DNA from: a virus
Taxonomy: Duplodnaviria; Caudoviricetes
Reading direction: 5' to 3' (one strand)
Length of the DNA: 64,000 bases
Virus record (IMG/VR): IMGVR_UViG_2831987924_000001
Shown: piece after piece, positions 1 through 31,240 of the stretch
Layout of the letters: the number at the start of each line of letters is the position of its first letter
How positions within the stretch are numbered: the stretch's first letter is position 1
Notes under the pieces: generated by a model
Database searches by the model: none
Told to the model about the DNA's origin: nothing
Seen by the model: the letters and a program-made list of their open reading frames with translations, nothing else
Position numbers and translations under genes: made by a program

Positions 1-116
1 AAATCCATTTTTACCAATTTCAAATCTTTTCATTGTTTTTAAACAGTCTTCGTTATATATTTTGTTTAATTCTAACAAAATATCACCACCTTTATAATTT
101 ATTTAAAATGAGAAAT

Positions 117-332
117 TTATAAACTCATTATTATGGTATCTGTAACATCAATCTCTTTTATTTCGATTTTCACTATTTTGACATTATCAAAATCTTTTAA
201 TATATAACGTATATCTTCATAATCTAAGTCTTTAGCTAAATATCTGTTTGTAGTAAATTCAATATCATAAATATTTTCATTTACGGGTATAATATTTTTC
301 ACCCAAGAATTACCTACTCTTGCTTTATACAT
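117..332 (-). CDS. small hypothetical protein
   Basis: 71-aa ORF with upstream GGGAG RBS; stop lies in a junction motif. Confidence 0.65.
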   Translation of the reverse strand: MYKARVGNSWVKNIIPVNENIYDIEFTTNRYLAKDLDYEDIRYILKDFDNVKIVKIEIKEIDVTDTIIMSL

Positions 333-372
333 ATGCTTTATCTGCTCCCTTCATTTGATAAAAAACAAGATT

Positions 373-822
373 TTAATTACTCTTAATTTCAATCGTAAGT
401 AATCCAGAATTTGCTTTCACAGACATCAATCTGTTATTATATTCATCTTCTTCATGCCACGGTACATATACAGTTTTAATGCGTTCTTGATTCTCATTTA
501 AAGTATCTATAGTAACAATGTCATTATGTTCCGTAATTCTTCCAAGTATGTTTGGTCTATCTTCAACATTGTTACTCATTGGATTACCTATATACATACC
601 TAATGGCTCGTCTTGTTCAAGACTATTGTATTGAAGTTCACTTTCATCATTATATGAAATTGATAACAATATATAATCAGTTTCATATGTATTATCTTCA
701 TAAAATCCTTTTTCGTCAGTTAATTTCTCTAAATTTCCATATTTTAATTCTTTGATCCTGTCAATTGGAATAATGATTGATTCACAATTTTCAAAACCAA
801 TTTCTATATATTTCCCTTTCAT
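373..822 (-). CDS. hypothetical phage protein (acidic)
   Basis: 149-aa ORF, GAGGTG RBS. Confidence 0.7.
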   Translation of the reverse strand: MKGKYIEIGFENCESIIIPIDRIKELKYGNLEKLTDEKGFYEDNTYETDYILLSISYNDESELQYNSLEQDEPLGMYIGNPMSNNVEDRPNILGRITEHNDIVTIDTLNENQERIKTVYVPWHEEDEYNNRLMSVKANSGLLTIEIKSN

Positions 823-856
823 ACGTGTTCACCTCATTTTGATTAAAATGTGTAGT

Positions 857-1078
857 TTATTCATCTTTAAAAATTTTTTCAAATTCATTCCAAATATCAT
901 ACTTTCTTGCAAGTAATAAAAATTCATCTTCACTTAAATCTGGAAAATAATCTTTTGACTTTGCCCATTTCAAAGCTTCTTCCCAATTGTTGTATTCCTC
1001 GCTTTGAGAAAAGTGAAAAGAATTTAATATTGTATTCATTAAAATTGCTTCAATCTTTTCTTTATTGTTATCTTTCAT
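857..1078 (-). CDS. small hypothetical protein
   Basis: 73-aa ORF, GGAGGTG RBS. Confidence 0.7.
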   Translation of the reverse strand: MKDNNKEKIEAILMNTILNSFHFSQSEEYNNWEEALKWAKSKDYFPDLSEDEFLLLARKYDIWNEFEKIFKDE

Positions 1079-1105
1079 TCTATCACCTCCGATAAAAGAT
1101 GAATT

Positions 1106-1536
1106 TCATTCATAATACTTAATTGTATATCCATCTAACAATTTCAATTCCTTTAACTTCTCATATTCTTCTTTTTCAAGAATTTTTTCATAACCAACAT
1201 GCTTTACCGCGATTTCATATGCAAACACCAAAATTCGCATAAAATCAATATAAGAATCAGCACCACAAATATGATAATATCCATCTATTTCATTATCAGT
1301 TTTATCACCACAATCTTGACCATAAAACCAAAAATGAGAACACCCATCCCATTCTACCAAAACATCTGCAAAAAAAATTCTGTTTCATAAGGGCTTCCAT
1401 CATCATTCCATGAAACAGTCTGCTTAATTGTGCCACTTATTGAAAGTTCATAATTTTTATTTTGTTCGTATGTAGCAATGACATTCCCTTGATTATCGAT
1501 CAATTCGGCTTTTTTAATCATTTTTATTCCTCCCAA
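1106..1536 (-). pseudogene. hypothetical gene split by a frameshift in a T8 run
   Basis: ORFs 1354..1536 and 1106..1360 join into one frame (ETEFFFADVLVEWDGCSH) if the run at 1370-1377 has one more base. Confidence 0.55.
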
Positions 1537-1597
1537 TAAACATGACTTTTATTTAATTTATCAATATTAATAACAAAATATTTTATTTATGTATTTT

Positions 1598-2368
1598 TTA
1601 TAATTTATTTAATTCCGCAATTCTTTTATTAATCATGTCATCTATGTATGATTTATTAATTTCTGTAGCAACATAATTGCGTTTGTGTTTAATGCAACTA
1701 ATTATTTCACTCCCGCTTCCCGCAAATGGAATATAAACCAAATCACCTTCATTACTTGAACATAAGATGATTCTATCACATATCTCTAATGGTTTTTGAG
1801 TTTTATGTCCTACTGATTCTTTTTTCTTCCCAACTAAATTAGGAATATACCAAACATCATCAGGGACTTTTCCTTTTGGGTTTAAACGTTTATCCTTTTC
1901 AGCATATTTACTTTTAATTCTAATTTCATCTGGATTCCATGTATGATTATTAATATCATTAACACAATAAAATAAAGGTTCATGTGCTAATTTAAATTTT
2001 TTATTTGGTGATACCCCACCACTTCTATACCATATAATTCTATTTTTAATTGTAAAATATTTCTGTAATAACAAATCTATTTCAGCCCCAATTTCTTGTG
2101 AATTATAAAGCCAAAGAGAACCATTTGGTTTTAATAATCTTTTATATTCTTTAATATGCGTTTCCATAATATTTAAATAATCTTCTTTTGTTTTATATTC
2201 TAATCCAAAATCTAACTTCCCTGCATCACTAAATCCTTTCACATTATAGTAAGGTGGATCTACAATGATTAAATCAAAACCGTTAAAGTTATCAACGCCT
2301 ACTTCCAATCTTTTCATAAATTTTAAGCAATCTTCATTATATGTTTGATTTATTTTAAGCATACACAT
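1598..2368 (-). CDS. N6-A/N4-C DNA methyltransferase, beta class (orphan)
   Basis: DPPY catalytic motif N-terminal to H-x-TQKP and PFAGSGS SAM-binding motif. Confidence 0.9.
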   Translation of the reverse strand: MCMLKINQTYNEDCLKFMKRLEVGVDNFNGFDLIIVDPPYYNVKGFSDAGKLDFGLEYKTKEDYLNIMETHIKEYKRLLKPNGSLWLYNSQEIGAEIDLLLQKYFTIKNRIIWYRSGGVSPNKKFKLAHEPLFYCVNDINNHTWNPDEIRIKSKYAEKDKRLNPKGKVPDDVWYIPNLVGKKKESVGHKTQKPLEICDRIILCSSNEGDLVYIPFAGSGSEIISCIKHKRNYVATEINKSYIDDMINKRIAELNKL

Positions 2369-2732
2369 CCTCCTCTTTTAGTGCTGATTTATATTGATTA
2401 ACAAATGTTATAAATTGGGTAAAAGCTTGTTTGAAGTCTACTCTTCCTAATCGTGTAAAAGCTCGTTCCTCTTTAAAATTCATTTCAGAAGTTAATTCAA
2501 CTATTCTATAAAAATATCCACCAAAATCTATTTCAAATAATCCTAAAATAACTGTATTCTCATCAGAATAAATTAAATTTTGAATTGACTTATCAAATTC
2601 TTGTTCCGAAAACCATTTGATTGCTGCTTCTAATCGCTCTTTAGCTTCCTTTTTAGTTAATCCAGTTTCTTCCCAGTTACCCAATTTAGCAACGTATCCA
2701 TGTTTTAATGGTAATTTTTCTACAGTAATCAT
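2355..2732 (-). CDS. hypothetical protein
   Basis: 125-aa ORF, AGGAG RBS, overlaps the MTase start. Confidence 0.7.
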   Translation of the reverse strand: MITVEKLPLKHGYVAKLGNWEETGLTKKEAKERLEAAIKWFSEQEFDKSIQNLIYSDENTVILGLFEIDFGGYFYRIVELTSEMNFKEERAFTRLGRVDFKQAFTQFITFVNQYKSALKEEDVYA

Positions 2733-3239
2733 TTAAATCACTCCTTTATGTTTATTTTAATAAATAATTAATTTTCTACAAAACATGACTTTTATATAAT
2801 TCATCTTATTAAAACAAACATATAAGGATCGTCATTTTCATATTTAGTTTTTAGCATATTAACTATATTAACTATAATGCCCACATTTTAACTTCAATAC
2901 CATTCCGGCTTATTCCTACTAGTTTCTGATTTACGTTTCTCTTTTTCATTTAAACACTTTTCACAAAAGAAATAATCAATCCTTGTCCATTCAGTCATAC
3001 CTGTTGTTACATGGTATTCTTGTTTTTTTCTTGCAATCAAAATGAACATACTTATGATCACAAATCATGCACATTTTTCCTCCTTATTAAATTAATATCA
3101 ACCTATTAGATACTTTTTTCCACACCTTTTACAGACAAAACCATCTTTTCCGTCTTTCAAATAAGCATCGTGCCATAATAAGAAGCATATAAGTTTTTTA
3201 AACATTCTTTTCTCCCTTTCTTTTAATACAAATATACTA

Positions 3240-3599
3240 TTACTTTAACAATGCTTTATATGCTAATAAAAAATATTTACCACAATCATTGACTAATATT
3301 TCATCTGGTACATCATTAATTTTACACAGTCTTATATGTTCAAAAAAATGATCTCTTTTTAATCCTAATCTAGTAATAATGGCTTTTAATGCTGTCTGTT
3401 GTGAGCTATCTGTATTAAAATAGGCAACAGCTTTTGAGTTATTTTTAATCTTATTAAGCAAATATTCAATATCACTATGTTTAAATCCAAATGTTTCAGC
3501 AACTGGTGCTACTCGTGGGTATTCTTTATATAAAGGATTTTCTGCAATATTCACATAATCATCTCCTAATAATTTCCATAAAACTCTGTTTTTAATCAA
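3240..3599 (-). CDS. hypothetical protein
   Basis: 119-aa ORF co-oriented with neighbours; start uncertain. Confidence 0.55.
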   Translation of the reverse strand: MIKNRVLWKLLGDDYVNIAENPLYKEYPRVAPVAETFGFKHSDIEYLLNKIKNNSKAVAYFNTDSSQQTALKAIITRLGLKRDHFFEHIRLCKINDVPDEILVNDCGKYFLLAYKALLK

Positions 3600-4009
3600 T
3601 TTTTATGTAGCGTGGATTTAAATATGCTTTAATCGCATTTTGTAATCCTTGATTAACTAACTCAATCGACTCTTTATTTAATTTATCATTTTCAAGAAGA
3701 TTAGCCCAAAATTTAATTTCTTCTTTAGGATCAGGCAACGTCTCGATTTTATTTTCAAAATTCATATTTATACATCCTTTTATAATTTTATTTAATCACT
3801 TTTCGATCAGTGTCTCAACTGCCACACCAAAGCTAAATACCGCCAACATCATCAATCCTAGAAATTGTACAACTGTTTTCGGATTATCATACCATCTCAA
3901 AGCAATAGCCATAAAAACAATGCTAAGAAAAAGAAAGAAATAAAACATCAATTCACCTCCTGTTATTATCTTTAATATTATTATAATTTATTTAATTAGG
4001 TTTGACAAG

Positions 4010-4918
4010 TTAAATTTGAAAATTTTCTTTCTTTAATAGCTCATAAATAAACTGTACACCATTCGGTTTTACTTTTGTTGTTGTAGTATGGAATGATTTA
4101 TTACCTTTATCAACTGGAACATCTGTCACATTAAAATAATCTTCATATCCTCGATTCGGATGATTTGTATACTTGCCATGACTTTTATTCTTGCTCAATA
4201 CACCCTTTAACCGCAAATAATTTGTCAATGCTTGAGCTGAAATTTTAATATTCATACCATACATTTCATTAGCTCTTGTTGAGATCATTTTAGCCACTTC
4301 AGTAAATGTGTATGTACCATTTGAAGCAATAAACTGACCCCAAGCATCAACCATAGGTTTTTGTTTTTCTAATTCCTCTTCTAATTGTTTGATATGTCGG
4401 TTTTTATATTCGTCATATTCCTTAATAGCTAAAGCTTTTTCTAAATCATCTTTGGCGCGAATAATATTTAAAAGCAATCGTTCTTCTTCATCAATTCCTT
4501 TTGTTTTCTGATTATCTGTCAATTCCTCTTGTTGATCAAGTAACGCAGCTCGTACACGTCTGGCAACAACTGAATCACGAAGTAGCATTCCAACATTCAA
4601 TAATGCACGTTTGGAAAACACTGTTACTGATCTTGCTCTTGTTTTTAATCCACTGAGTGACTTGATGTCACGCAGTTTCTCTCCACTGAGTGACACAGCT
4701 CCATTTTCCATTAATTCATCTTTATTACGGACATAAAGCTGGCGAATAACATCTTCACTTACTTCATACCATTCTGCAACCATCTTTGTTGTCATTAGTT
4801 CTGTATTAGGTAAAGTAAAAATTTTCCCAACTTTATCTAACACTTCTAAACGATTCATATATTTTTGACGTAAATCTTTATCCTCAACAAATTTATCAAT
4901 TGATACAACGTTACTCAT
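4010..4918 (-). CDS. phage antirepressor-type DNA-binding protein with C-terminal KilAC/ANT domain
   Basis: N-terminal TTKMVAEWYEV...RALLNVGMLLRDS region, coiled coil, then KP-V-AWGQF...TFTEVAK...TTTKVKPNGVQFI. Confidence 0.8.
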   Translation of the reverse strand: MSNVVSIDKFVEDKDLRQKYMNRLEVLDKVGKIFTLPNTELMTTKMVAEWYEVSEDVIRQLYVRNKDELMENGAVSLSGEKLRDIKSLSGLKTRARSVTVFSKRALLNVGMLLRDSVVARRVRAALLDQQEELTDNQKTKGIDEEERLLLNIIRAKDDLEKALAIKEYDEYKNRHIKQLEEELEKQKPMVDAWGQFIASNGTYTFTEVAKMISTRANEMYGMNIKISAQALTNYLRLKGVLSKNKSHGKYTNHPNRGYEDYFNVTDVPVDKGNKSFHTTTTKVKPNGVQFIYELLKKENFQI

Positions 4919-5383
4919 TTTACCCTCTCCTTTTATATTAATTTATATAAATGCATTATTTTAATTAGTCTTCTTTTTAACTAATGTTTATATAATGTCA
5001 CAAATTAATCCTACCATTAAAAATATAAACCAATAAGAAGCAGTCGTTGTTTGCTTGTCAAATAATTCATTAATCCCCCTACTAGTCAATTCATCTATAT
5101 TAAATAATGATAGAAGCCAAGCTATAAACAAAGATCCTGATGTATTAATAATAATCACTACCTTTCAAATTCAAAATGTATTTTACTTGCCACTTTCAAT
5201 TCTGTTTTTAATATATCTCTCCAATCTATCTAAAACATTTTCTGCTACTTCAAAAAAGTAATCAATATGACTTCCTTTATTTTCATAGTATCTCTCCTTC
5301 AATGTTGCTAAATGTTTTTTCATTTCTTCAATTTCTTTAACCATTATTATTTACCTCCATTTCTCAATAGAATCGTTCATTTA

Positions 5384-5578
5384 TTAAGAAATAAAATCAA
5401 ACAATAGTTTTATCACATTCTTTTTTATTGATTGAGAAAATCCCAATGTATGCCCATTATGCACAGGTATATAAAGAATTTCCCCATGTTCATTCTCTTT
5501 TGCTAAATATTCTAAAACTCCATCATTCCCGATCACTTTCCAACCTTTATCTAAAAGTTCTTGTTTGCTTTTCTTCAA
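5384..5578 (-). CDS. small hypothetical protein
   Basis: 64-aa ORF with GGTGGAG RBS. Confidence 0.55.
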   Translation of the reverse strand: MKKSKQELLDKGWKVIGNDGVLEYLAKENEHGEILYIPVHNGHTLGFSQSIKKNVIKLLFDFIS

Positions 5579-5619
5579 TGCAAATCTCCACCTTTATTTA
5601 AAAGGATTCTTTCGTTCGA

Positions 5620-5856
5620 TTATAACCAACTTCCGTATTTAAAGTTTCCTTTAACATGTATTTGATTATCAACTAACTCTACATCAAAATAAGGGAAGTA
5701 TTTTTGATATTTCAGTATCTCTTCATAAGTTTCATATGTGATTTTTTCTCCATACACTGTTTCACCAATTTTGACGCTAAATTTACATGGATTATCATGA
5801 TGTATACTCCAGCACCGTTCTAACACATTCTTTGTTGACTCATCAAATCTTTCCAC
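5620..5856 (-). CDS. small hypothetical protein
   Basis: 78-aa ORF in the minus-strand array. Confidence 0.55.
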   Translation of the reverse strand: MERFDESTKNVLERCWSIHHDNPCKFSVKIGETVYGEKITYETYEEILKYQKYFPYFDVELVDNQIHVKGNFKYGSWL

Positions 5857-6416
5857 TCCATAAAATCATCCCTTTGTATCCAAATAAAATGATTATTTGA
5901 CCGTTAGTAAATTCCCTACTACAATCATAATCATTATGCCGCTCCATATCACATAAGGCAACCAATCCATTTTACTTTCTTCTAAAATATCATCTATGTT
6001 TTTATTTGTCACTAAAAAATTATAATACATTTTTTCGAATCGCTTAATCATTATTTTATACACCTCTTATTATATATTTTATTTAATAAGGGAATCAATC
6101 AAATCTTAACAACCCTGTACTTCTCATTTGTTTTATACACCACAACATCATCCATAACTATAATCTTGACTTTTCTGAATTCCTTCTTTAATTCATTGAT
6201 AATTTGTACTCTCTCCTTGAAACTGCTATATGGAATTGCTCCACACACCATGTATATTCCTCCTTAATTATAATTTATTTACATAAACATATATTTCTAT
6301 AACGCCCCACCAAACAACAACGTTAAAAAGAAAGCAGAAAATACAACAGCAGCCCATCGTGTTTCTTTATCACATACCACTTCTTTAAACATTTCCATCA
6401 TGTTAACCACTCCTTA

Positions 6417-6635
6417 TTATAATTTATTTTTAATATTTTTCCATTCTTCTTGGAGATAGTCACTGGAGACAACGCAATTTTCTCGATACCACTGAATAGC
6501 CTCTTCAAGATCAACTAATTTTTGCTTTTCATATTCAGTTAATTCATTGAACTCAATAATTCGCTGCAAATGTTTAATTTCATCAATAATGCCACGGTAT
6601 AAAAAACGTGATACGCTAAATGGTACATGAGGCAT
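6417..6635 (-). CDS. small hypothetical protein, paralog of 8460..8687
   Basis: shared VP-x5-LY-GII...EA-x-WY-ENC-VSS-Y pattern. Confidence 0.7.
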   Translation of the reverse strand: MPHVPFSVSRFLYRGIIDEIKHLQRIIEFNELTEYEKQKLVDLEEAIQWYRENCVVSSDYLQEEWKNIKNKL

Positions 6636-6666
6636 AGATATTCCCCTCTCTTTTAATTAAAATAAT

Positions 6667-7179
6667 TTACCACCAAAACCACACAAACGTTTCACCTTCA
6701 ACAAACGGATCAACAATTTCTTTTTTAAAGTGCTCCCTACAATATTCTTCTGTATAAGGTATCAATTTTAATAATTTATCTTTTTCGAAAATGGTCATAA
6801 ATCCATTTTCATCTACATCGTCAGGCAGTACGGTCGTCCATTCCTTCATTCCTTTTCTCTGATAACCGACTTCTTCAACAAATACTCCAACCTCTGTTGC
6901 TTCATAAGTTTCGAATGGATAGTCAAAAGGAAACATAATTTTCTCATCTGTTTTTAGTGAAATGAAATATATACCATTCTCATCCGTCATTGTCCATTTG
7001 TAATTATTAAGATCTAAACCTCTTTTAATAAATGTATTTTCCCAATCAATATATCGTTCTTTTCGTTCAATTATTTTATCACCTAAAAATTGTTTAGCTT
7101 TTTCAGCGGCAATACCTTCGAACACATGAAATTCATCACTGCTATTGACAATTTTGTATAGATAAATGTCTAACCCCAT
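6667..7179 (-). CDS. conserved phage hypothetical protein (MGLD-start type)
   Basis: AGGAG RBS before MGLDIYLY; EVGYQRK motif; ends in WFWW. Confidence 0.75.
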   Translation of the reverse strand: MGLDIYLYKIVNSSDEFHVFEGIAAEKAKQFLGDKIIERKERYIDWENTFIKRGLDLNNYKWTMTDENGIYFISLKTDEKIMFPFDYPFETYEATEVGVFVEEVGYQRKGMKEWTTVLPDDVDENGFMTIFEKDKLLKLIPYTEEYCREHFKKEIVDPFVEGETFVWFWW

Positions 7180-7275
7180 TTCTTTCACTCCTTTTATATT
7201 TTTATTAAACGCCCGACACACAATCCATGTGAAAATGCATCGGGCGTGCTGTTATACGTTCCATAAAACTATTCT

Positions 7276-7485
7276 TTAATTATTTACTAACTCACGATAA
7301 ATCATTACATTGTTTGAAATAACATAAATATCATCACCGTTTTCAAGGCACACAACAAACTTATTGTCATCTTCTTGTATAATCTTTTCTATTTTTAAAT
7401 TACTATATTTATCTCCAACTGTAAGCGTCCAATAACTTTTTCCAACGCTTAAAATACGAAGGCTTTTTATAATTTTTTCTTGCAT
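7276..7485 (-). CDS. small hypothetical protein
   Basis: 69-aa ORF, AAGGAG RBS. Confidence 0.65.
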   Translation of the reverse strand: MQEKIIKSLRILSVGKSYWTLTVGDKYSNLKIEKIIQEDDNKFVVCLENGDDIYVISNNVMIYRELVNN

Positions 7486-7552
7486 GGCGATACTCCTTTT
7501 GATTTAAATTTGCATAAAATCGAGAGTTTATTTGTTTTACATTTTCATCGTA

Positions 7553-7774
7553 CTATGAATTAACACGTATTAAGCTACTTACTAACCACTTCTCTCCTCT
7601 TTTCTTTTTAGCTTCCTCGTCAATCCAATCGATATAAACAAAAGGATTATCGACTTTTTTTACTACGCCTTTGACATAATCTTCTTTTGTAGCAACAACA
7701 TCTCCTTTCATAAAATCAAAATTTATAACCGCGCCATTTATCATGGCTTTTTGCTGAACTCTATTCTTCTCCAT
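7553..7774 (-). CDS. small hypothetical protein (SH3/KOW-like pattern)
   Basis: 73-aa ORF, AAGGAG RBS, KGDVV...GVV. Confidence 0.6.
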   Translation of the reverse strand: MEKNRVQQKAMINGAVINFDFMKGDVVATKEDYVKGVVKKVDNPFVYIDWIDEEAKKKRGEKWLVSSLIRVNS

Positions 7775-7806
7775 TGCCTTTATACTCCTTCCTTCGCTTT
7801 ATGTGT

Positions 7807-8022
7807 CTAATTAGAATTAATAATTGAAAGTGATCGCATTGCCTCCTCAAACGTTTGCCAACTCTCTATAATAGCGCCAAGAGAAAGATCATAAATATCA
7901 TATTCTTCAATTATATACCCATCAACATCTATAATTTCTTCAACAATCATATGTGTTGGCGTTAAATGTTTTATGCTTTCTGAAATGATTTTTGCTCTCT
8001 CGTGCATTTGGAAATCATTCAT
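7807..8022 (-). CDS. small hypothetical protein
   Basis: 71-aa ORF, GAGGAGG RBS. Confidence 0.65.
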   Translation of the reverse strand: MNDFQMHERAKIISESIKHLTPTHMIVEEIIDVDGYIIEEYDIYDLSLGAIIESWQTFEEAMRSLSIINSN

Positions 8023-8687: not shown

Positions 8688-8775
8688 TTTAACACACTCC
8701 TTTTGATTTGTTTGATGATATTATAGCATGACTTGTTGTTAATTACAATATTTATTTTTATAATTTATTTAGATT

Positions 8776-10356: not shown

Positions 10357-10635
10357 TTATTCATATAATCTTCCTAATAATTCTTTTTCCATATATTCCT
10401 TTAACAACTTTACAGTTTCTTCATATGTTTCATATTTTGTGTTATTGTATAGGTCAGTCATTTCTTCAGCAATTTTAAAGGCTAATTCTTTGTCATTGAG
10501 GTTTTCAAAAACAACATAATTTCTTTGATATTCTTTATCGCCAGTTAAGTATTCATTAATAATAAAATATTTATTTTCGTACTCTATAACTACATAACGA
10601 AATCTTTTATCATATGTGTAAAAGATTTCTTCCAT
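10357..10635 (-). CDS. hypothetical protein
   Basis: 92-aa ORF, AAGGAG RBS. Confidence 0.7.
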   Translation of the reverse strand: MEEIFYTYDKRFRYVVIEYENKYFIINEYLTGDKEYQRNYVVFENLNDKELAFKIAEEMTDLYNNTKYETYEETVKLLKEYMEKELLGRLYE

Positions 10636-10975
10636 TTTTTATATCAACTCCTTTAAAAGTGTGAATTTATTTTGTAACCCTAGAGGAGAACTCTAGGGCT
10701 TGTTATTGGTTGGTTATACATTTACTCTTGTAATAATTCTTTAAGCACCATTAAAATTTCTCCAATAATCATAACCGAAGCGTATTCTTGGGCTTTCTGA
10801 GCTTCTTTGAATCGTTCTTCGTACTCTTTGATTTTGTTTTCAATTTTTGTTTGTAAATCCATTTTATTTTCCTCCTTTTGATTCATTTAACTATATTATA
10901 CATTTGTTTTGTGTGTTAGTAAATAAACATTTTTTATATTTTATTAAAATGTTCAGCAAGTTAAACTATTGGCTG

Positions 10976-11182
10976 TTATGTAGTTTTATGCTTTTTCAAG
11001 TATTCGTTTTCATTAAGAAGGTAGCGAATAGTATTAATTAACGTCAACGATTTTTCTTCAATAAGTTTGCGAATGTGTTCATCTTGTATATATCTAAATG
11101 GATCGGTTAGTTCGAGAAAGAAAGTTTCAATTTTAGCTAATTCTTTACGGTCAGTGATGATTTTTGTTTCCATTGCACACAC
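10976..11182 (-). CDS. small hypothetical protein
   Basis: 68-aa ORF, AAGGAG RBS. Confidence 0.6.
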   Translation of the reverse strand: MCAMETKIITDRKELAKIETFFLELTDPFRYIQDEHIRKLIEEKSLTLINTIRYLLNENEYLKKHKTT

Positions 11183-11284
11183 TCCTTTTAAAATGGCTAG
11201 TGATTTTAGAAAGTTTCTGTTATGTTAGATTTTCAAAAATAAGCCAGTGATTCAGAAGTTTGTCTGTTATGATAAAAAATGACA

Positions 11285-11740
11285 TTAATCTATTTTATAA
11301 ATCGTTACTTCATAATCTGCAAAAGCCTTATTTATTAAATTCCATACAATGTTCCAATCACCTCCAGCAAATCCACAGCCTAAACCATGAGGTAAAGCGA
11401 CAGTTAAATTATGTTTCTTTGCTTTCTGTTTAAGTGTTTCGAGTGCTTGAAATAGATGTTCATAATTCGTATATCTTTGACCTCTGCCATAATTAAATTG
11501 ACCGAACAAATTAGCAACATATTTATTTTCATTAACCTTTATTACTTGTACTGTACCTAGTAATATTTCTTTGTTGCTGTTATGCATGTTTACTAGCTGC
11601 TTATATTTTTCAAACACAATAGGATGTTTATTTCTAATCTTTGCTGCCAATCCAAAACCTATTACGCCCTGACAGTTGACTTGGTGTCATATGATGTTTT
11701 CGGTTGCTTGTAATAAGTCGCCTTTTACTTCTTTGATCAT
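11285..11740 (-). pseudogene. macrodomain (Appr-1''-p processing, Poa1p/DarG-like) gene with in-frame TGA at codon 18
   Basis: GGGAGG RBS; reads MIKEVKGDLLQATENII*HQVNCQGVIGFGLA...VALPHGLGCGFAGGDW; TGA at 11687-11689. Confidence 0.85.
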
Positions 11741-12164
11741 TTTTTAACCTCCCAATAAAACATGGATTTTATTTAAAGTTTAAAGCATTTTAAATGCTTT
11801 TAGAAGCAAGTACATGAAACATTCATACTTAAAATAAGCCCATGATATTCTGTGAATCCTATTATTAAAGTTTACAAAAAATGACTGACAATATTTTCAT
11901 TGTGATGTTATGTTGAAAAGTGAGAACGAAAAACGTTTTAAGTAAAAGTCGCCATGATTTTTAAATCTCGCTGTTATGTTAAAAAAGTTAGTACGAAAAA
12001 CGAACACGGCTTAAAATATCGTAGCAACCTTCTTTGCTGCCTGTTATGTGGAAACGTCAATTTTAAGGCATAGGATGGCGTTTATGCGTTCGATTTAATT
12101 TGTAAATATTATTATATTTTCACACATAAACGCCATATAAGCCCGTTCGCCAGTAGTGGCGCTG

Positions 12165-15100
12165 TTATGATACTTTTTGACTTTCTTTATCCTGTTGCAC
12201 TAAATAAGCTATATATCGTTTTGCATCCTCTAATTTATCGGTTGACTTCATTTCATGAATTTCTCGATTGCCTTTAAATATTCTAAAACATCCCCACAAA
12301 CGAGCTGTCCAATAGTCCCCGTACATATAGACACGTTTACGCTCTTTATAGCCCATGTATTCGATTTCTTTTGTCATGACTGTAAATGTAAGTTCATTTT
12401 TTACACTCTCAACAGCTTCCTTTATACGTTGCTCTTTTTCTTTCTGTATTTCGTTCTTTGCTCTGTTAATAGTTGCATCTATTTGCTTTGTTAGTTCTAC
12501 GGACTCCTGTATTAACTTATCATATCGGCTTAGCGCTTTGTCATATTTGCGCTTATTTAAATTTCCGCGCCCGGTCACTGCCCACGATGGGTTCTCACTA
12601 CGATGACGCAATATTTTCACATAGTTGTCAAAATAACGCTTTTTAAATGACTGAAGGGACTTTTTAAGATAATACTTTATGCGCTCGTTGTCGGTTTGTT
12701 CTAGTAAGTCAATGACCTTGCTGTTATATTGAGTAAATAATTCTTGTATTTCCTTTGTGTGATCTCGTTTTTGAGTTCGAAAAATCCAACTTGCCGCATG
12801 TTCAGCTTCTTGTAGACGTTCATCAATGACATAAGTGTCTATATCGTCAATATTAATATCTGGATATGCTTCCCGTTCGCCTACATCTTGGCTGTTATGT
12901 GTATCGTATGAATGAATTAATACATAATCATTTAAAATGTCGCTGTCATATCCTTTGCCAATTTCTTCACCATTAGCACGAATAAGGAAATAAAACGGTT
13001 TTTGTTCGTCTAAATTGGTATTAATACACTCCAATAGTATAGAATCGCTATTTTTAGCTTTAAATAAGCATAAAGGCATTACATTATCCTTTTCTAGACG
13101 TTTTGACAATGTTTTTCGCTGTTCGTCTGTTAGTTCACTGTTATATGAATCAGACAGGAGCGACTGAACAAAATTAAGTCGCTCGTTTGTCTTTTTAGCA
13201 TACCAAAAACCTTGACGTGACCATTTGAAGCCGTATTGTTTCAATTGCTCCCGAATAGCTTCGCTTGGCTTTTCGGAAAAATAAAGTTCTATGCCGTTCT
13301 TTTCATCGTTGATTTTATAGGATACTTGTAGCGTTGTCGCTTGTTCGCTGTTATTGAGTATTTTGGCTTGTAAGTCTTCTAGTGATTCGTTTGCAGGCAT
13401 GTTATTGAGTTTTTTGGCTTCTTCTTGCATTGTGTCATGGTTCATTATGTCATGGTTGCTTTGTTCTTGTAAAATGCCTAGCTCGTGCATGTTGTTGCTG
13501 TTATTGAATTTTTGGGCTTCTTGTATAGTATCATTTACAGCTTTTTCTTTTTGTTCGTTGCCTAGCTTCTGTATGGTGTCGCTGTTATTGGTAAATTCAT
13601 GTAATAACTTAATACCATACACATGACGATCATAATAATCTAACTCATGACTAGAAAAGGCAAAAGAACCATCGAGAAGGAAAGACATATATAGGTCTTT
13701 GCCTTCATTCGTTTTCACATGTAAAACGGCTTGCTTTGCTTCATTTTGACGCTGATAGACAGCTACAAAGGTAAATTTGTCATTGTCTTTGTGACGGTTT
13801 AGAATCTCATTAATTTTAGCGTTTTGACATTCTGAAAGGTCTTCATGATAAAATAATACTTCTTGAAGCGGTTGTTCTTCTTCTGCTACTATTGCAGCTA
13901 TTTCGCTATTTCCCGCGCTGTTATTGCGTTCGCCCGACTGATCGCTTGGATCAGTCGGGCTTTTTGGTGTTTCATCATCATAGAGCATGTAAGTATCAAG
14001 AAAGTTTTTCCATGATTCACGGTCTGATTTTAAAGCGTTTAGATAGCTTTCATATTGTTCTTGTGTCCAGCTATAAGGTTTTTTCATTCCTGCCATTGTT
14101 AAAGCAAAGTTTTCAATATGCTCGGACAGTGGTGCGCTTTTGTATAAATCGCTTGCTTGTACATCAATACGTCCTTCGTATTTTCCACCGTCTTCCCATT
14201 CGACGCGGAAAGCTGTTTTGTCATATCCACCAGTGTCTTTTCTAAAAGCTATATCTTTTATAATTTTGTTAGCTTCTTCCCATGTTGTAACGGTTGTGTC
14301 GTCTTTAATTACTGGTGATTCAGACCATAAAAATGTAATTGATTTTACTTTAATTTTTTGCGTTTGTTCTTTTTCAGTTTGTAACCGTTCTTTTGCTTGT
14401 TGCGTGTTATCGTGTTCCGATTCGGTTACATATTCGGACTTTAGGATATTAAAAAGTTCGCTATTTTGTAAAGCATTAACGGCATTGTAAACGTCAATAG
14501 GTTGCACAAATGAATATTTGTTATTCTCTTTGACGTCATAGTAGGCATTTTGCAAAGTAACGATATAAGGTTTCAAGTCTGTCATACGCAGAGCGTCATT
14601 AAACGGTCTATTTGTTGCGATTAAATCAATAAGTGATTTATGGGCATTGTAAGCGTCCGCTAATGTTTCGACTTGTTGTGGATCTTGTTGCTCTTCCGAC
14701 TGTTCCGCTACTTCTTCCATTTGTTCTTTTGCCTCACCTGCTAACATTTTCGCGAATTGTAAACGATCAGCAGTTTGTTTTGCATACCATATTTTTTTGT
14801 ATTTACTCCAGCGAAAACCTTGCGCCTTTAGCTCGTTTCTTACTTCTTCACTTGGTATGCTTGTAAAAGAAATTTCGATGCCGTTTAATTGTTCGTTTAG
14901 TGTGTATTTAGCTTGTGCTTCTGAATGTCGCGGCTCTTGTTGGGCTTCTTTTGGTTGTTTCGGCTGTTCTTGTTGAGCTTCTTTTTGGCTCTCAAGTGCT
15001 TCTAAATACTCTAAATACATTTTTTCGGCTGTTTCGTTAAATGCTCTATAATAGCAAGCGCGGTCATTTAAATAAGATTCACCATAATTTGCGCGGACTT

Positions 15101-15371
15101 CCGTTTCAATTTTGTTTTTTAGTTCGTTAGTCCATTCTTGACGAGTGAAAACGAATAAATTACCACCTGACAGAATTTCACCTGTTACTTCGCAACGTTG
15201 CACTTGTTCATATTTTGAAATGACTTCTTCGACGGCTTTTTCTGTAGGGAAATTGGTCCATCTAACATTGATCGAGCCGGAACGTTCGCAACGTACAGAA
15301 AACTTTGTAAAAGGAAATTTTTCTTTTAACTCTTGACGGATTTTTTTAGCTGTTTCTTTTGTGTTCATCAT
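12165..15371 (-). CDS. large polyvalent protein (LPD29-like N-terminus, LPD25-like domain, duplicated NGIE...GF-WS...WYAK domain)
   Basis: 1068 aa; KETAKKIRQELK...KFSVR...SINVRW; WSES...GYDKT-F...YEGRID; internal repeat. Confidence 0.75.
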   Translation of the reverse strand: MMNTKETAKKIRQELKEKFPFTKFSVRCERSGSINVRWTNFPTEKAVEEVISKYEQVQRCEVTGEILSGGNLFVFTRQEWTNELKNKIETEVRANYGESYLNDRACYYRAFNETAEKMYLEYLEALESQKEAQQEQPKQPKEAQQEPRHSEAQAKYTLNEQLNGIEISFTSIPSEEVRNELKAQGFRWSKYKKIWYAKQTADRLQFAKMLAGEAKEQMEEVAEQSEEQQDPQQVETLADAYNAHKSLIDLIATNRPFNDALRMTDLKPYIVTLQNAYYDVKENNKYSFVQPIDVYNAVNALQNSELFNILKSEYVTESEHDNTQQAKERLQTEKEQTQKIKVKSITFLWSESPVIKDDTTVTTWEEANKIIKDIAFRKDTGGYDKTAFRVEWEDGGKYEGRIDVQASDLYKSAPLSEHIENFALTMAGMKKPYSWTQEQYESYLNALKSDRESWKNFLDTYMLYDDETPKSPTDPSDQSGERNNSAGNSEIAAIVAEEEQPLQEVLFYHEDLSECQNAKINEILNRHKDNDKFTFVAVYQRQNEAKQAVLHVKTNEGKDLYMSFLLDGSFAFSSHELDYYDRHVYGIKLLHEFTNNSDTIQKLGNEQKEKAVNDTIQEAQKFNNSNNMHELGILQEQSNHDIMNHDTMQEEAKKLNNMPANESLEDLQAKILNNSEQATTLQVSYKINDEKNGIELYFSEKPSEAIREQLKQYGFKWSRQGFWYAKKTNERLNFVQSLLSDSYNSELTDEQRKTLSKRLEKDNVMPLCLFKAKNSDSILLECINTNLDEQKPFYFLIRANGEEIGKGYDSDILNDYVLIHSYDTHNSQDVGEREAYPDINIDDIDTYVIDERLQEAEHAASWIFRTQKRDHTKEIQELFTQYNSKVIDLLEQTDNERIKYYLKKSLQSFKKRYFDNYVKILRHRSENPSWAVTGRGNLNKRKYDKALSRYDKLIQESVELTKQIDATINRAKNEIQKEKEQRIKEAVESVKNELTFTVMTKEIEYMGYKERKRVYMYGDYWTARLWGCFRIFKGNREIHEMKSTDKLEDAKRYIAYLVQQDKESQKVS

Positions 15372-15410
15372 AATTAACTACCTCCATATAATTTATTATA
15401 ATTTACTTAA

Positions 15411-15439
15411 ATTATATCATGGTCATTTAATAAAATCAA
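15411..15439 (-). promoter_or_regulatory. sigma-A-type promoter for the polyvalent protein gene
   Basis: TTGATT-17-TATAAT. Confidence 0.7.
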
Positions 15440-15467
15440 CTTTTTATATAAAACAAAAGCCCACTCT

Positions 15468-15692
15468 TTAAGAGTGGACAGTGTACGGGATAGCGTAGTT
15501 ATTTGCAATCATTTTAATACCTCTTGCTTCTTCTTGCGTTTTTGGGTAAACGGTTAATGTTTGACGATCTCCTTTTATGCTTAAATATCCATATCCTTCC
15601 CTAATCTCTTTTAGACCTTCTCTCACATTGTTGCGCCAAATTTTAAACTCCTTGTCATTGTTACGTTTAATTTTTTTAAGTACGATCATCAT
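15468..15692 (-). CDS. small hypothetical protein
   Basis: 74-aa ORF, AAGGAG RBS, own promoter. Confidence 0.7.
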   Translation of the reverse strand: MMIVLKKIKRNNDKEFKIWRNNVREGLKEIREGYGYLSIKGDRQTLTVYPKTQEEARGIKMIANNYAIPYTVHS

Positions 15693-15733
15693 TTAAACCA
15701 TCTCCTTTATTATTATATTTTCCCTACAAGTAC

Positions 15734-15762
15734 ATTATAAACCTGCTAATTACTAAAGTCAA
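15734..15762 (-). promoter_or_regulatory. sigma-A-type promoter
   Basis: TTGACT-17-TATAAT. Confidence 0.75.
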
Positions 15763-16026
15763 CGACTAAATTATAAAAGTAACATCGTTTTCAACGCACA
15801 TAAACGGCTTATTTTCGCATTTTGCAGCGTTTAAATGGTATAGCATTAGGGTACTATCTAAAACGCAAAATTGGGCGATTTTAAGCGTATGGGAGCGTGT
15901 GAAGTGGATAGGTGAAGGGAAACAAAATGATTGGCTGAATGTGAAAAAATAATAAAAGCAACCTTCTACCATATTGGCAAAAGGTTGCTCGTTATGGTGG
16001 GAATATGTACATTGTATCAGCTCCAG

Positions 16027-16257
16027 TCATACGATTAGGAAGTATTCTTTCAAGCGATGTTTAGCAAGTAACCGATCTATAACTGGCTCTACTTCTTCCG
16101 CATAGGCAAGCTCCTTAATTTCATCATCGGTTAGGTTTGGGTAGACTTCATTTATTAAAAATTCGTATGCTTCTTTTAGTTCCTCGCGCTCCTTTTTAAT
16201 TGCGTAATATGATGAAAAGTTATAGATGATCGCCATTTTTATTACCTCACTTTCCAT
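16027..16257 (-). CDS. small hypothetical protein
   Basis: ORF with GAGG RBS and a TTGATT-17-TATAAT promoter at 16276-16304. Confidence 0.65.
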   Translation of the reverse strand: MESEVIKMAIIYNFSSYYAIKKEREELKEAYEFLINEVYPNLTDDEIKELAYAEEVEPVIDRLLAKHRLKEYFLIV

Positions 16258-16344
16258 ATTATATTTTTCAATATTATTATATTGTTTTCCATTTCAAAAA
16301 TCAACCATTTTTTATATTTTGATACAAAAAATTAACCGATCTTT

Positions 16345-16539
16345 TTATGATCGGTCGAGAATTCCTTGCTTAATATTGTTAATCCAGTCCTCAACATCTA
16401 AATATAAATCATCGAATGATTTTTCAAACGGATACCATTCGGCGAATAAATCAGCGTCAATGTTTTCGCTTTCGACTTCCTCCATTAATTGTAACCATGC
16501 TTTTTTAAAGTTTTCTAATGCTTGTAATGTATGGTTCAA
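16345..16539 (-). CDS. small acidic hypothetical protein
   Basis: 64-aa ORF, AAGGAG RBS. Confidence 0.6.
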   Translation of the reverse strand: MNHTLQALENFKKAWLQLMEEVESENIDADLFAEWYPFEKSFDDLYLDVEDWINNIKQGILDRS

Positions 16540-16607
16540 TTTTATTCACTCCTTTTTTATATAAAATCGTGTTTTTATCGTACCTATGAGGGATTAAAAC
16601 TCGGGAT

Positions 16608-16910
16608 TCACTGACGCAATCGGTCACTCCAAAACAGTAAACGTTCTTTCCACAAATCTTTATCGCAAACTCGCAAAGTATTGTTTTTGTCATAGTAGGC
16701 GACAATGTCGCCCATGTCGAGGGCAACATCCCAAATATTGTCATTGTTATTCCAATTGATTTCCCATCCTCCTTCCCAGTCCGAGAAATCATCATTAAGA
16801 GATGAAGCGTTAAGAAAGCAATATAAAGTTCGTTCATCAACCGGAAAAACTCCTTTTTCCGTGATAACCGCATCATAAGCTCCCGTATGGACATAAATTG
16901 CTTGATACAT
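16608..16910 (-). CDS. acidic hypothetical protein
   Basis: 100-aa ORF, AAGGAG RBS. Confidence 0.7.
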   Translation of the reverse strand: MYQAIYVHTGAYDAVITEKGVFPVDERTLYCFLNASSLNDDFSDWEGGWEINWNNNDNIWDVALDMGDIVAYYDKNNTLRVCDKDLWKERLLFWSDRLRQ

Positions 16911-17022
16911 GTTATCATCTCCTTTTTTTAAATTGTAATAAAATCAATGTCTAAAACACTTTTTAGACACTCATTTTATTACAATTCGCTTGCAGGGAAT
17001 TCAATCCCTGCAAGCTATGGAA

Positions 17023-17277
17023 TTATTGCATAACTATGCTTGTCACATACTTATAATAAACATTGTTATATTCATCTGTTTTTTCTTCAAACAGATGAGC
17101 AAACTTTTTCCCGTGTGCTTTCGCTTCTTCTCTTGCTTCGTCAGTGTCTTCGACAATTTGATAATAGAGCTCTGCTCCTTCTTCAATTCGATCAACGGCG
17201 AATTGTGAATTATAAGTGTAGATTGCGAACATTTTAAACACTCCTTTTTTTAATTTATTTTTTTTGGGATCACTCAC
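17023..17277 (-). CDS. small acidic hypothetical protein (true start probably MFAIY)
   Basis: AAGGAG RBS before the internal Met. Confidence 0.6.
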   Translation of the reverse strand: MSDPKKNKLKKGVFKMFAIYTYNSQFAVDRIEEGAELYYQIVEDTDEAREEAKAHGKKFAHLFEEKTDEYNNVYYKYVTSIVMQ

Positions 17278-17356
17278 CTTATCGTCGGCACAAGCTCCCT
17301 TATGCCGACTGTAAGAGAAGCGATCATTTTTAAAAGTGCACGTCTACCAGCAACGG

Positions 17357-17815
17357 TCAGCGATCAGTATAATCAATGATCACATACTCATCCGGTCGAT
17401 ATTCAACTGTGATGGGACGGATGCGGACGTGCAAGCTTGTCGGTGTGTATTCATCCGTATAGACGATGCCATCGTATTCTTCACCGTCCCAAGCGTCATG
17501 AGACAACCCGACAAGCTCCCCTGTCCGCTGGGAGCGGATAAGCCGGACATCGCGGAACGGTGAGCGGATTTCAAACCATTCTGCCAATTCGTTCGGGAAA
17601 CCCAATTCTTCCCATAGTTCGACTACCGCGTCGAAATCATCTTCTTCTGCTGGAAAATTCGCCGGATTGTCGTTCAATCCACACCAGACGAAATCAGCTG
17701 TCCGGTTCTCAAAGTCGATAGTCACGTATACAACGTCGTCGCCGCGGACTTGATCAAGCCGGTCGGCTTCGGCTTCAAAGTATTTGCGAGCATCAACAGA
17801 AAATTGGACTTTCAT
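17357..17815 (-). CDS. acidic hypothetical protein, GC-richer than its surroundings
   Basis: 152-aa ORF, GGAGG RBS. Confidence 0.75.
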   Translation of the reverse strand: MKVQFSVDARKYFEAEADRLDQVRGDDVVYVTIDFENRTADFVWCGLNDNPANFPAEEDDFDAVVELWEELGFPNELAEWFEIRSPFRDVRLIRSQRTGELVGLSHDAWDGEEYDGIVYTDEYTPTSLHVRIRPITVEYRPDEYVIIDYTDR

Positions 17816-17905
17816 AACTTTCTACCTCCATTCATCGTTCCCAAAAATGCTTCCATTTTTAAATTTCCCCTTTCGATTTTTAATTTTTTTAACCTTTCTG
17901 ATTAT

Positions 17906-17934
17906 AGTATATCACCATTTTATTTAGCTGTCAA
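17906..17934 (-). promoter_or_regulatory. sigma-A-type promoter
   Basis: TTGACA-17-TATACT. Confidence 0.75.
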
Positions 17935-17984
17935 CAATATTTTTTATTATATTTTAGTCGAATTGATCTCATGAAATACTGATT

Positions 17985-18401
17985 TTATTTAGAGTTATGA
18001 AAATCAATAAATTCATTTAACTTGTATATTGACCATTTATAACAATCTGTTAATTTTTGATATTTGTCATGCATACTACACATGTTGTTAATATCTTCAT
18101 TTTCTAATTTTAATAAATCTGTTTCAAGTTCTTTTGCATCCTTATACCAGTCCAAATAAATAATAGAGCATCTAATATAATAATCACCTTCATAATGTTT
18201 AAATAAATGTAATTCCGGTAAATTTCTTTTGATCAACTTAACGGTTAACAATGTATCAGTGATTCTATAAAATTCATTTGCTGAAATCGTAAATAATTCA
18301 TTAAAGTTTGTGATTTCTTTAAATTTAGGCTTAAATGTTGGATTATCAAAAATAGTCATCCCGTTTTTCGTGTAGTTAAATGAAAATATTGCACTTAGCA
18401 T
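17985..18401 (-). CDS. hypothetical protein
   Basis: 138-aa ORF, AGGAGG RBS. Confidence 0.7.
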   Translation of the reverse strand: MLSAIFSFNYTKNGMTIFDNPTFKPKFKEITNFNELFTISANEFYRITDTLLTVKLIKRNLPELHLFKHYEGDYYIRCSIIYLDWYKDAKELETDLLKLENEDINNMCSMHDKYQKLTDCYKWSIYKLNEFIDFHNSK

Positions 18402-18494
18402 TGTGAAGACCTCCTATAAAATCATTTTAAAGTTGATAAATTTAGTTAGGTTGCAGGTGTTCGGCTGTTATTGTGAACACCTGCAGAAATGGTG

Positions 18495-18707
18495 TCACAT
18501 CATCACCGCTTGATCTTGCAACGCATAGAATTTCTCTTTGTCAAAGCCATATTCGCGTTTAAGTCTGTTATACAGCTTATTCATTTTATAAGTGTATTCT
18601 TGCTGCTTTCGCTCCTGCTTCTCAAAGTGTTCAATTGTGCCATCCCATTGATATTCTTGCAATTCATCCATCCATTTTCTAATAAGTAAAGCGTAGACTT
18701 TCATCAT
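18495..18707 (-). CDS. small hypothetical protein
   Basis: 70-aa ORF, AAGGAG RBS. Confidence 0.65.
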   Translation of the reverse strand: MMKVYALLIRKWMDELQEYQWDGTIEHFEKQERKQQEYTYKMNKLYNRLKREYGFDKEKFYALQDQAVMM

Positions 18708-18963
18708 TAATGATCATCTCCTTTTTTTAATGCTTTAAGTATTAAAACAGAATCATGTCGCCGTATTGCTGTTTATATGCTTCGTATTCATCCGGCATAA
18801 TTGAGTAGCATTTTTCCATTTTTACCTTAATGCCTAGACCATTGATCATTTTGTCAATGTAAGCATTCATTTCCTTTTTGTCATCCCATTGTGATACGTT
18901 GATAATAATCATTCTAAACACTCCTTTTTATAATTTTCTTTAAAAGTAATATTTTATCGGCTT

Positions 18964-31239: not shown

Positions 31240-31240
31240 T

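Follow-up and report, generated by a model that had tools for sequence, protein, structure and literature searches.

A stretch of 64,000 nucleotides from the virus record IMGVR_UViG_2831987924_000001 (IMG/VR), hereafter the window, was analysed for an 18-bp palindrome, ATAAAA-N6-TTTTAT, which recurs at the junctions of its small genes. The window corresponds to C5:1411872-1475871 in a 3.73-Mb genome and is enclosed by a low-GC island at approximately C5:1349000-1492800 (~144 kb, ~30% GC, against 51% GC in the chromosome). The nearest record was Geobacillus virus E3 (141,298 bp; E3 in what follows), with a megablast identity of 78% over 23% of window positions 1-20000. By blastn, the whole island aligned with E3 in 67 pieces of 71-100% identity, in conserved order and with unrelated stretches between them. 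The window belongs to a prophage of the Geobacillus-virus-E3 type. Positions are those of the window; negative site numbers and 79017 are prophage positions in the same window-based coordinates.

From 1 to 34 kb, the window carried minus-strand genes, mostly small, with products that included a DNA methylase, an antirepressor, a 1068-aa LPD polyvalent protein, a RecD2-like helicase, an FtsK/SpoIIIE ATPase and a tubulin/TubZ homologue. Plus-strand genes from 35 kb onwards included portal-like and tail genes and a tyrosine recombinase gene at 55491.

Spacing and placement of the sites

Exact ATAAAA-N6-TTTTAT occurred 5 times in the window, against a mean of 0.26 in dinucleotide shuffles (0/100 reached 5), and the count at ≤1 mismatch was 16 against 5.4 (0/100 reached 16). 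At ≤2 mismatches the count was numerically higher than in the shuffles and at chance level (66 against 56.4; 11/100 reached 66). Enrichment over a shuffled background, proposed as a check in the initial annotation, was thus found for exact copies and at ≤1 mismatch, and did not extend to ≤2 mismatches over the whole window. Because shuffling ignores the AT-rich intergenic gaps, arm spacing was used as an internal control: N6 gave 5 exact copies and 16 at ≤1 mismatch, and the other spacings from 0 to 15 gave 0-2 and 3-12, respectively. Everted and direct arrangements of the arms showed no peak in the window.

In the whole prophage (~144 kb), there were 13 exact copies at N6 against 0-3 at other spacings from 0 to 20, and the totals were 45 sites at ≤1 mismatch and 158 at ≤2. 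In an unbiased scan of all hexamers with their reverse complements at spacings 0-24, this was the sole pair with at least 6 copies at one spacing (13 against 0.83). The excess was found in prophage intergenic DNA, where N6 gave 9 exact copies, 28 at ≤1 and 68 at ≤2 mismatches (other spacings 0-2, 2-10 and 25-53), and was little in coding DNA (4, 17 and 90 against 0-3, 4-16 and 77-120). This division was made from longest open reading frame (ORF) calls, of which some starts are over-extended, the sites at 3578 and 16561 being really junction sites. Of the 2-mismatch copies in intergenic DNA, about one in two should be genuine, with individual ones indistinguishable. The sites are strictly spaced and bound to gene junctions.

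The exact copies listed in the initial annotation (11755, 16561 and 54436) were borne out, and two that it had missed (15430 and 51803) were added. Its near-perfect copies were of unequal quality: those at 1092, 2778, 7263, 7514, 17971, 18940 and 41146 had 1 mismatch, and those at 103, 843, 1535, 5367, 10653 and 11272 had 2, which is the chance class in the window. The copy placed at 359 had 3 mismatches in that register and 2 at 360.

Approximately 30-45 gene junctions of the prophage carry the two-fold symmetric element, and the 18-mer is the entire linker between many co-directional genes. In gene direction, the stop of the upstream gene often lies inside the first arm, as A-TAA-AA or A-TGA-AA. 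The TAA or TGA of the arm was the stop of an ORF of at least 40 codons at 7/45 prophage sites at ≤1 mismatch and at 18/158 at ≤2; within the window, arm-encoded stops were found at 103, 843, 1092, 3578, 17971 and 18940. The shared stop codons noted in the initial annotation were confirmed, with the ORFs 117..332, 373..822, 857..1078, 1106..1360 and 17985..18401 ending 14 bases into the respective sites. So was the closeness of the next ribosome-binding site (RBS) to the other arm: a GGAGG-like sequence within 0-2 nt, and then a start codon, followed at ~15/45 sites. The 6-base centre varied by site, again as described before, with almost no information across sites, and information was ≤0.3 bit outside the 6-bp arms.

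In E3 the N6 arrangement yielded 17 exact copies (against 0-4), rising to 52 (against 7-23) when 1 mismatch was allowed. Five IMG/VR relatives (G048-G052) were found through their replicative helicase (53-97% protein identity); with the LPD protein as query there were 0 matches in 47 other genomes of the host's family and none in IMG/VR. Compared with a backwards-read control, the motif was in excess in G048 (24 against 2), G049 (18 against 3), G050 (31 against 6), G051 (7 against 1) and G052 (3 against 1). Of the large siphophages at greater distance, the SPbeta-type phage Goe12 (39 against 2) and Tsamsa (25 against 8; 20 of the 25 exact) also had an excess. SPBc2 had 14 copies in 50 kb. Sundance (6 against 4), Alicyclobacillus phage KKP_3916 (7 against 3) and Lysinibacillus phage LC76P1 (9 against 7) were not enriched. 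Preference for N6 over other spacings and over everted and direct arrangements was seen in seven genomes, in a comparison set of few related genomes that are kin rather than independent. The same arms recur in three groups of large siphophages of Bacillaceae: the E3-like, the SPbeta-like and the Tsamsa-like phages.

Outside the prophage, no excess at ≤1 mismatch was present in the host chromosome (35 at N6 against 21-64). A host factor as reader of the sites was rejected on this absence of N6 excess; several of the 8 exact chromosomal copies came from one repeated element. No description of the motif was found in the literature covered, which did not extend to Lazarevic et al. 1999 (SPBc2) and to supplements, and the motif is unmentioned in the available sections of the SPbeta review (PMC8270828) and the Tsamsa paper (PMC3903500). 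The 'palindrome' features of the SPBc2 record (77856-77871 and 82394-82411) are different sequences.

Kept centres and replaced neighbours

Paired by identical centre, the sites of the prophage and of E3 formed a colinear series. A 6/6 centre occurred within ±3 kb of the syntenic E3 place for 18 of the 45 prophage sites at ≤1 mismatch, against 0.82 in random windows, and a 5/6 match for 4 more (against 1.65). Among 25 colinear same-centre pairs, 2 had both flanks alike and ~8 had neither, the rest being one-sided or weak; a flank was considered unlike when its 100-nt local score was within the null (95th percentile 23) and it had no tblastx match in 300 nt. The pairs with neither flank alike were those at -57691, -22160, -21292, -18493, -7788, -5375, 54436 and 79017. 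Base by base, 8/9 one-sided pairs kept identity through the 18-mer and lost it ≤4 nt past its far edge. A given centre remains in its place on the map instead of moving along with a gene.

The order of the centres CCAATC, CTAACA, TTAGCT, TTGATT, ACGATA and TCAGTC (gene direction) was shared by the prophage, E3 and G051, the helicase of the latter being 56% identical. Gene content between shared centres differed, the distance from TTAGCT to CTAACA being 276, 862 and 998 bp in this set (prophage, E3 and G051), and 5/6 prophage/G051 pairs had no flank similarity. Proteins near shared centres were from 28% to 94% identical; with identities of up to 94%, the array backbone may be fairly young in places, so that kept centres need not mean selection on the centre.

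Alignment of relatives, a check that the initial annotation had also proposed, showed genes replaced exactly at motif sites. Its idea of gene gain and shuffling at these sites was upheld in that genes are exchanged there, and was not upheld in its integron-like form: the 18-bp sites are not attC-like, and no integrase, attI or promoter platform was found beside the array. On the basis of these alignments, gene exchange is indicated to occur at motif sites.

Individual sites of the window illustrate both the junctions and the kept centres. The exact site at 11755..11772 (centre CATGGA, + strand) lies between a hairpin and the RBS of the macro-domain gene 11285..11650(-); it matched E3 128121 at 18/18, and similarity covered the side of the downstream gene and ended at the outer edge of the site. 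At 15430..15447 (centre TCAACT), the exact site overlaps a -35 box. This box belongs to a sigma-A-like promoter close to consensus (TTGATT-17-TATAAT), which precedes the LPD protein gene 12165..15371(-), 1068 aa. The site matched E3 132622 at 18/18, with similarity stopping 4 nt past the site. The exact site at 16561..16578 is followed 8 nt on by AGGAG and by a TTG start at 16539 (ORF 16345..16539, -), and had no same-centre partner in E3. In the structural-gene block, the exact site at 54436..54453 stands after gene 53676..54410(+) and before a terminator-like hairpin; it matched E3 22627 at 18/18, with its 100-nt flanks at null score and no tblastx match in 300 nt. The exact match at 51803..51820 is of doubtful status, lying in coding sequence 17 nt into ORF 51787..52428(+), and had no partner in E3.

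Among the sites with 1 mismatch, the junction site at 1092..1109 reads ATGAAATTCATCTTTTAT in gene direction, its TGA being the stop of ORF 1106..1360, with GGAGG 1 nt past the other arm. At the junction site 3578..3595 the arm TAA ends ORF 3592..3765 and is followed by AGGAG and ATG. The same arrangement of arm TAA as stop, AGGAG and ATG was found at the junction site 18940..18957 (centre GTAATA), whose centre recurs at E3 138210 with different adjoining flanks. At 17971..17988, the arm TAA terminates ORF 17985..18401, and the -35 box of the promoter-like site 17934-17906 follows 37 nt downstream. That at 2778..2795 lies in a 161-nt gap upstream of ORF 2355..2732 and has ~45 nt in common with the 1535 copy. 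The candidate at 7263..7280, at the end of ORF 7276..7485, had no partner in E3; the site at 7514..7531 (centre TCGAGA), between ORFs 7553..7774 and 7276..7485, had its centre recurring at E3 119188 and G048 54462 with different flanks. The site at 41146..41163 (centre TCACAA), after gene 40506..41135(+), had the same centre as E3 9406 and matched it at 17/18, with a right flank only weakly similar.

With 2 mismatches, the site at 10653..10670 (centre GTGTGA) stands immediately before the AGGAG of ORF 10357..10635, and its centre recurs at the syntenic E3 126957. The copy at 56478..56495 (centre CTCCCC) stands immediately past the stop of the recombinase gene, and its counterpart, E3 25333, is an exact site with identical centre. 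Junction copies were found at 103..120 (arm TAA as stop of ORF 117..332; next RBS 13 nt on), 360..377 (at the stop of ORF 373..822), 843..860 (arm TAA as stop of ORF 857..1078; GAGG 8 nt on) and 5367..5384 (after ORF 5384..5578). The region of the 103 copy is covered by no relative, so this copy has no individual confirmation. The copy at 1535..1552 adjoins the GGGAGG of the next gene, and ~48 nt there resemble the 11755 copy; that at 11272..11289 lies at the stop of ORF 11285..11650.

Explanations of the sites

With a probability of about one half, the sites are protein-read crossover joints for gene exchange between such phages. A paired (dimeric) phage protein would read the sites on double-stranded DNA, and the sites would act as crossover points when related phages or prophages share one cell. 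The strict spacing, the junction anatomy, the occurrence across clades and the kept centres favour this explanation, as do symmetric double changes in the arms, somewhat in excess (14 against 8.6, P = 0.044), and the marginal stability of free RNA hairpins. Exchange would be mostly in register, with each gene keeping its own stop and RBS, because partners must match in the centre. The crossover could be made by a site-specific recombinase, for which the YomM-like protein at 55491 is the candidate, or by short-homology recombination at 18-mers that a protein keeps conserved.

The candidate gene, 55491..56477(+), lies in the tail-gene block and encodes a YomM-like tyrosine recombinase of 328 aa with Pfam Phage_integrase and SAM-like N domains. 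Compared with archaeal XerA structures, the Arg, the hairpin Lys, the HxxR, the His and the Tyr were kept. Judged by location, the gene is the counterpart of yomM in SPBc2 and of GP28 in E3; the protein was 60% identical to its Tsamsa counterpart and 34-36% identical to those of E3 and Goe12. Its matches in Tsamsa and Goe12 were strong and covered the full length, and those in Sundance, LC76P1 and KKP_3916 were only partial and weak. It is the sole tyrosine recombinase in the window, 36 kb from the small-gene array. When 236 prophage ORFs were profiled for presence in E3, Goe12 and Tsamsa and absence in Sundance and KKP_3916, only two ORFs satisfied the profile completely, one for a tape-measure fragment and one for a 3D-domain cell-wall protein. 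The YomM-like recombinase fitted the profile except for its weak partial match in Sundance, and no other DNA-acting protein among the 236 ORFs (no small DNA-binding protein) tracked the motif. The 55491 recombinase, to which the initial annotation had pointed, is a candidate reader of the sites, with a weak link to them.

Two other tyrosine recombinases of the prophage form a yopP-yopQ-yopR-like module to the left of the window (-11632..-7825; L011/L012). These two tyrosine-recombinase-like genes encode 333 and 341 aa, and the gene between them is annotated in E3 as a DNA sulfur modification protein; the order of the module is that of yopP-yopQ-yopR in SPbeta. One of the two is a candidate MrpR-like master repressor.

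The sites have the core architecture of tyrosine-recombinase sites (6-6-6, strict N6, a centre within 6-8 bp) and lack their arm length (11-13 bp), with information falling outside the 6-bp arms. Heterospecific lox and FRT sites are used with Cre and Flp for recombinase-mediated cassette exchange. Like these, the sites have inverted arms around a short asymmetric centre, with common arms and differing centres, and the logic of heterospecific sites, by which there is no recombination within a genome and only matched in-register exchange, fits the kept centre order. Unlike lox and FRT, the sites have 6 conserved bp per arm rather than 13 and ~45 natural centres, and the families fam1 and fam4 change slots. 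Natural recombinase-mediated cassette exchange, a more specific proposal, is tentative and on balance doubtful. A late-made phage tyrosine recombinase would join matched 18-bp sites of co-resident genomes, and the ~45 centres would serve as addresses, preventing rearrangement inside one genome and holding swaps in register, as a dedicated gene-exchange apparatus of SPbeta-like, E3-like and Tsamsa-like phages. As the arms carry the stop and adjoin the RBS, every such swap would give intact genes.

Other known systems resembled the sites in part. In cluster A mycobacteriophages, the immunity repressor binds stoperators, asymmetric 13-bp sequences that follow the direction of transcription and occupy many short gaps between genes. 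The sites are like them in having tens of copies of one short sequence in intergenic gaps of a temperate phage, and unlike them in being palindromic. The attC of integrons (57-141 bp, R''-L''/L'-R' boxes) is read as a folded single strand and travels with its cassette. The array shares with it single-gene units in one direction and symmetric sites with conserved ends and variable middles; unlike attC, the sites are of 18 bp with 6-bp arms and are positional, with no integrase, attI or Pc platform next to the array. The ComK box (consensus AAAA-N5-TTTT) was rejected, as the sites do not have its N5 spacing of A/T tracts and shifted spacings showed no excess.

The pdif sites are of 28 bp (11-6-11), with unlike XerC and XerD arms. 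In the pdif/dif modules of Acinetobacter plasmids, accessory genes that are found in different replicons are bordered by short sites of the Xer type, according to Mindlin et al. 2019 (PMC6449649); the presumed actors are the host XerC/XerD. The sites are like these in bordering accessory gene modules, and unlike them in being symmetric-armed, of 18 bp, fixed in map position and not enriched in the host chromosome. The PeSLs of T4-type phages are described, in the part of Arbiol et al. 2010 (PMC2839356) that was available, as a sigma-70-like promoter with a terminator stem-loop, forming near-identical repeats between which homologous recombination takes place; when this happens inside a single genome, mini-circles result. 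They share with the sites the character of short repeated elements between small non-essential genes where recombination shuffled genes of close relatives; unlike PeSLs, the sites are of 18 bp, have no consistent promoter or stable stem-loop, and differ each in their centre.

Within the same phage group, MrpR of SPbeta (YopR; recombinase fold) binds the SPBRE element at about ten promoters, as stated in the accessible portion of PMC10516654. SPBRE is like the sites in being a repeated intergenic element, with a binder of tyrosine-recombinase fold. Identity with SPBRE was rejected: the 13-mer upstream of yonP, yonT, yonX, aimR, yopM and yopV in SPBc2 is AAAWAATATGTAT, which is not the palindrome of the sites, and the comparison rests on that 13-mer rather than on the published logo. 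The array is not an integron, and the sites are not SPBRE.

Several results weigh against crossover joints. No site at ≤1 mismatch was present at 63 of 77 mosaic breakpoint junctions relative to E3. Where one flank or both were alike in E3, junctions were breakpoints numerically more often with a site (14/15) than without (63/92; Fisher P = 0.06, ≤1 mismatch), and the same test at ≤2 mismatches gave P = 0.36. Ends of high-scoring segment pairs lay ≤20 nt from 13/28 intergenic sites against 52/223 control pseudo-sites, an excess of only ~2-fold. The families fam1 and fam4 were found in different slots across phages, and exchange is thus not strictly in register. No recombination product was seen in the only public run with this DNA, which consists of contigs of a relative and has 1/5 of the sampled words; its joints 4958/5610, 15912/16345 and 17007/17260 were off the ≤1-mismatch sites, and no RNA run was listed. 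Conservation is limited to 6 bp per arm; the arms of lox, FRT and dif are of 11-13 bp.

The distant clades (prophage/E3 against Goe12/Tsamsa) shared 0-4 centre pairs (3 against 0 and 4 against 1 in controls), none next to homologous genes, and this sharing was treated as chance. With centres unshared between clades, the kept centres may partly reflect recent common descent of the array backbone. The counterparts of the 55491 protein in E3, SPBc2 and Goe12 have HxxK, with Lys for the second catalytic Arg, and those of the prophage and Tsamsa have HxxR, so not every phage with the motif has a canonical active site in this enzyme. There was no 55491 match in G048-G052, contigs which are 10-58% complete and hence uninformative in this respect.

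The main alternative, possible although less probable than crossover joints and already named in the initial annotation, is that the sites are operators of a dimeric phage regulator (434-type helix-turn-helix or recombinase fold) which silences or times the early arrays from numerous intergenic places, in the manner of mycobacteriophage stoperators, with swap boundaries as a by-product. The 18-mers would be the sole conserved stretches between fast-changing genes, so that short-homology recombination and selection would leave breakpoints there. Strict dyad symmetry and spacing, intergenic placement and 45-52 copies per genome agree with operators, and so does the conservation across clades of the arms and not of the centres. 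The 15430 copy over a -35 box and a second set of copies that shortly precede AAATTATAA -10-like boxes point in the same direction, as does the lack of the second catalytic Arg in the YomM-like proteins of E3, SPBc2 and Goe12. The recombinase-fold protein of SPbeta, moreover, is a pure DNA-binding repressor according to the available part of PMC10516654.

Nevertheless, the motif showed no fixed relation to sigma-A-type promoters, and the four best gene-strand promoter-like sites (19388, 17934, 15762 and 4008) had no copy at ≤1 mismatch. Positions between co-transcribed genes or past the final gene of a block (54436; 79017, between convergent blocks) are frequent among the copies, and the host chromosome is not enriched. 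Chromatin affinity precipitation sequencing of MrpR in SPbeta gave ten peaks, all at SPBRE promoters, in the accessible text of PMC10516654, and SPBRE is a different sequence. From operators one would also not expect each copy to retain, at a constant place on the map, a centre that the protein does not contact when the sequences on both sides have been exchanged. If the sites are operators instead of crossover joints, they define a new regulator with ~45 targets per genome.

An element of the messenger RNA, either an intercistronic AU hairpin or a protein site, that tunes translation or marks processing of polycistronic early transcripts is unlikely. The location exactly between stop and Shine-Dalgarno sequence at ~15/45 sites would suit it, and symmetric, pair-keeping double changes of the arms were slightly over-represented (14 against 8.6, P = 0.044), with two such changes in one orthologous pair (E3 96764 and the prophage copy at -17469). 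Folding of the RNA of 8 sites at 37 °C, however, gave 0 to -2.4 kcal/mol, with 3/8 without fold, and the nearest phage relative infects thermophilic Geobacillus. G-U-compatible variants in the transcribed direction were not favoured (2 against 3), some copies have no downstream gene (54436, before the terminator-like hairpin; 79017, between convergent blocks), and kept centres and swap boundaries are left without account. With these results a cruciform or a protein-held hairpin is possible; free RNA structure is not favoured.

That the motif is a by-product of AT-rich composition, TAA stops and U-rich leaders, as the chance-level 2-mismatch class of the window and the TAA within the arm might suggest, is highly improbable and was refuted by the N6-specific excess in seven genomes, the unique hexamer pair and the syntenic kept centres.

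Phage mosaicism is usually credited to random recombination followed by selection, or to recombination at repeated promoters or terminators. Here a short, strictly built linker between genes marks gene replacement to the base, in groups that include the model phage SPbeta. If a protein reads the sites and makes crossovers at them, the phages would possess an inherent means of swapping accessory genes (anti-defence genes and methylases, for example) in register, and the sites would be a natural collection of dozens of recombination sites that exclude one another. Exchange at the sites is directly testable in SPbeta and Bacillus subtilis 168.

Further features of the prophage

Eight CGTTTCCC-like words, 11-13 bp apart and on both strands, were found at 32893-32990, just downstream of the tubulin/FtsZ-family (TubZ-like) gene. 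The locus beside them comprises 33085-34215(-) and 34206-34490(-), the small neighbouring gene having weak winged-helix matches. Repeats and TubZ-like gene together suggest that the prophage contains a partition locus of TubZ/TubR type, the repeats being its centromere. At 27080-32737(-), the FtsK/SpoIIIE ATPase (709 aa), a protein with a weak TrbL-like match (455 aa) and an M23 peptidase were encoded together, a conjugation-like DNA-translocation set within a siphophage genome.

The sequence ACATAACAG occurred 4 times on the minus strand at 10973-12049, in the long non-coding gaps around the macro-domain gene, and 6 times in the whole window, against 0.59 expected; these repeats may be iterons or an origin. 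A TAAATAAATTATAATAA-like box was repeated in many gaps (3960-4010, 6260-6300, 15370-15410, 20220-20260, 22370-22410, 22880-22990 and others), with a perfect -10 and often no good -35, and may be a phage-specific early promoter type.

Two ORFs of 233 and 300 aa at 35390-37368(+), ahead of an HU-like gene, occupy the place of SPBc2 yonO (single-subunit RNA polymerase) next to yonN; the first had PHROG 'sigma factor' matches, and neither had a sequence match in Goe12. To the left of the window, at L010:6930-10349 of the prophage, a DNA polymerase III alpha-like gene was found as two ORFs of 585 and 420 aa separated by a gap of ~400 nt, its counterpart in E3 being one gene of 1014 aa. The unbiased scan also returned a second inverted pair prophage-wide, AATCA-N5-TGATT, with 9 copies against 1.17 at other spacings.

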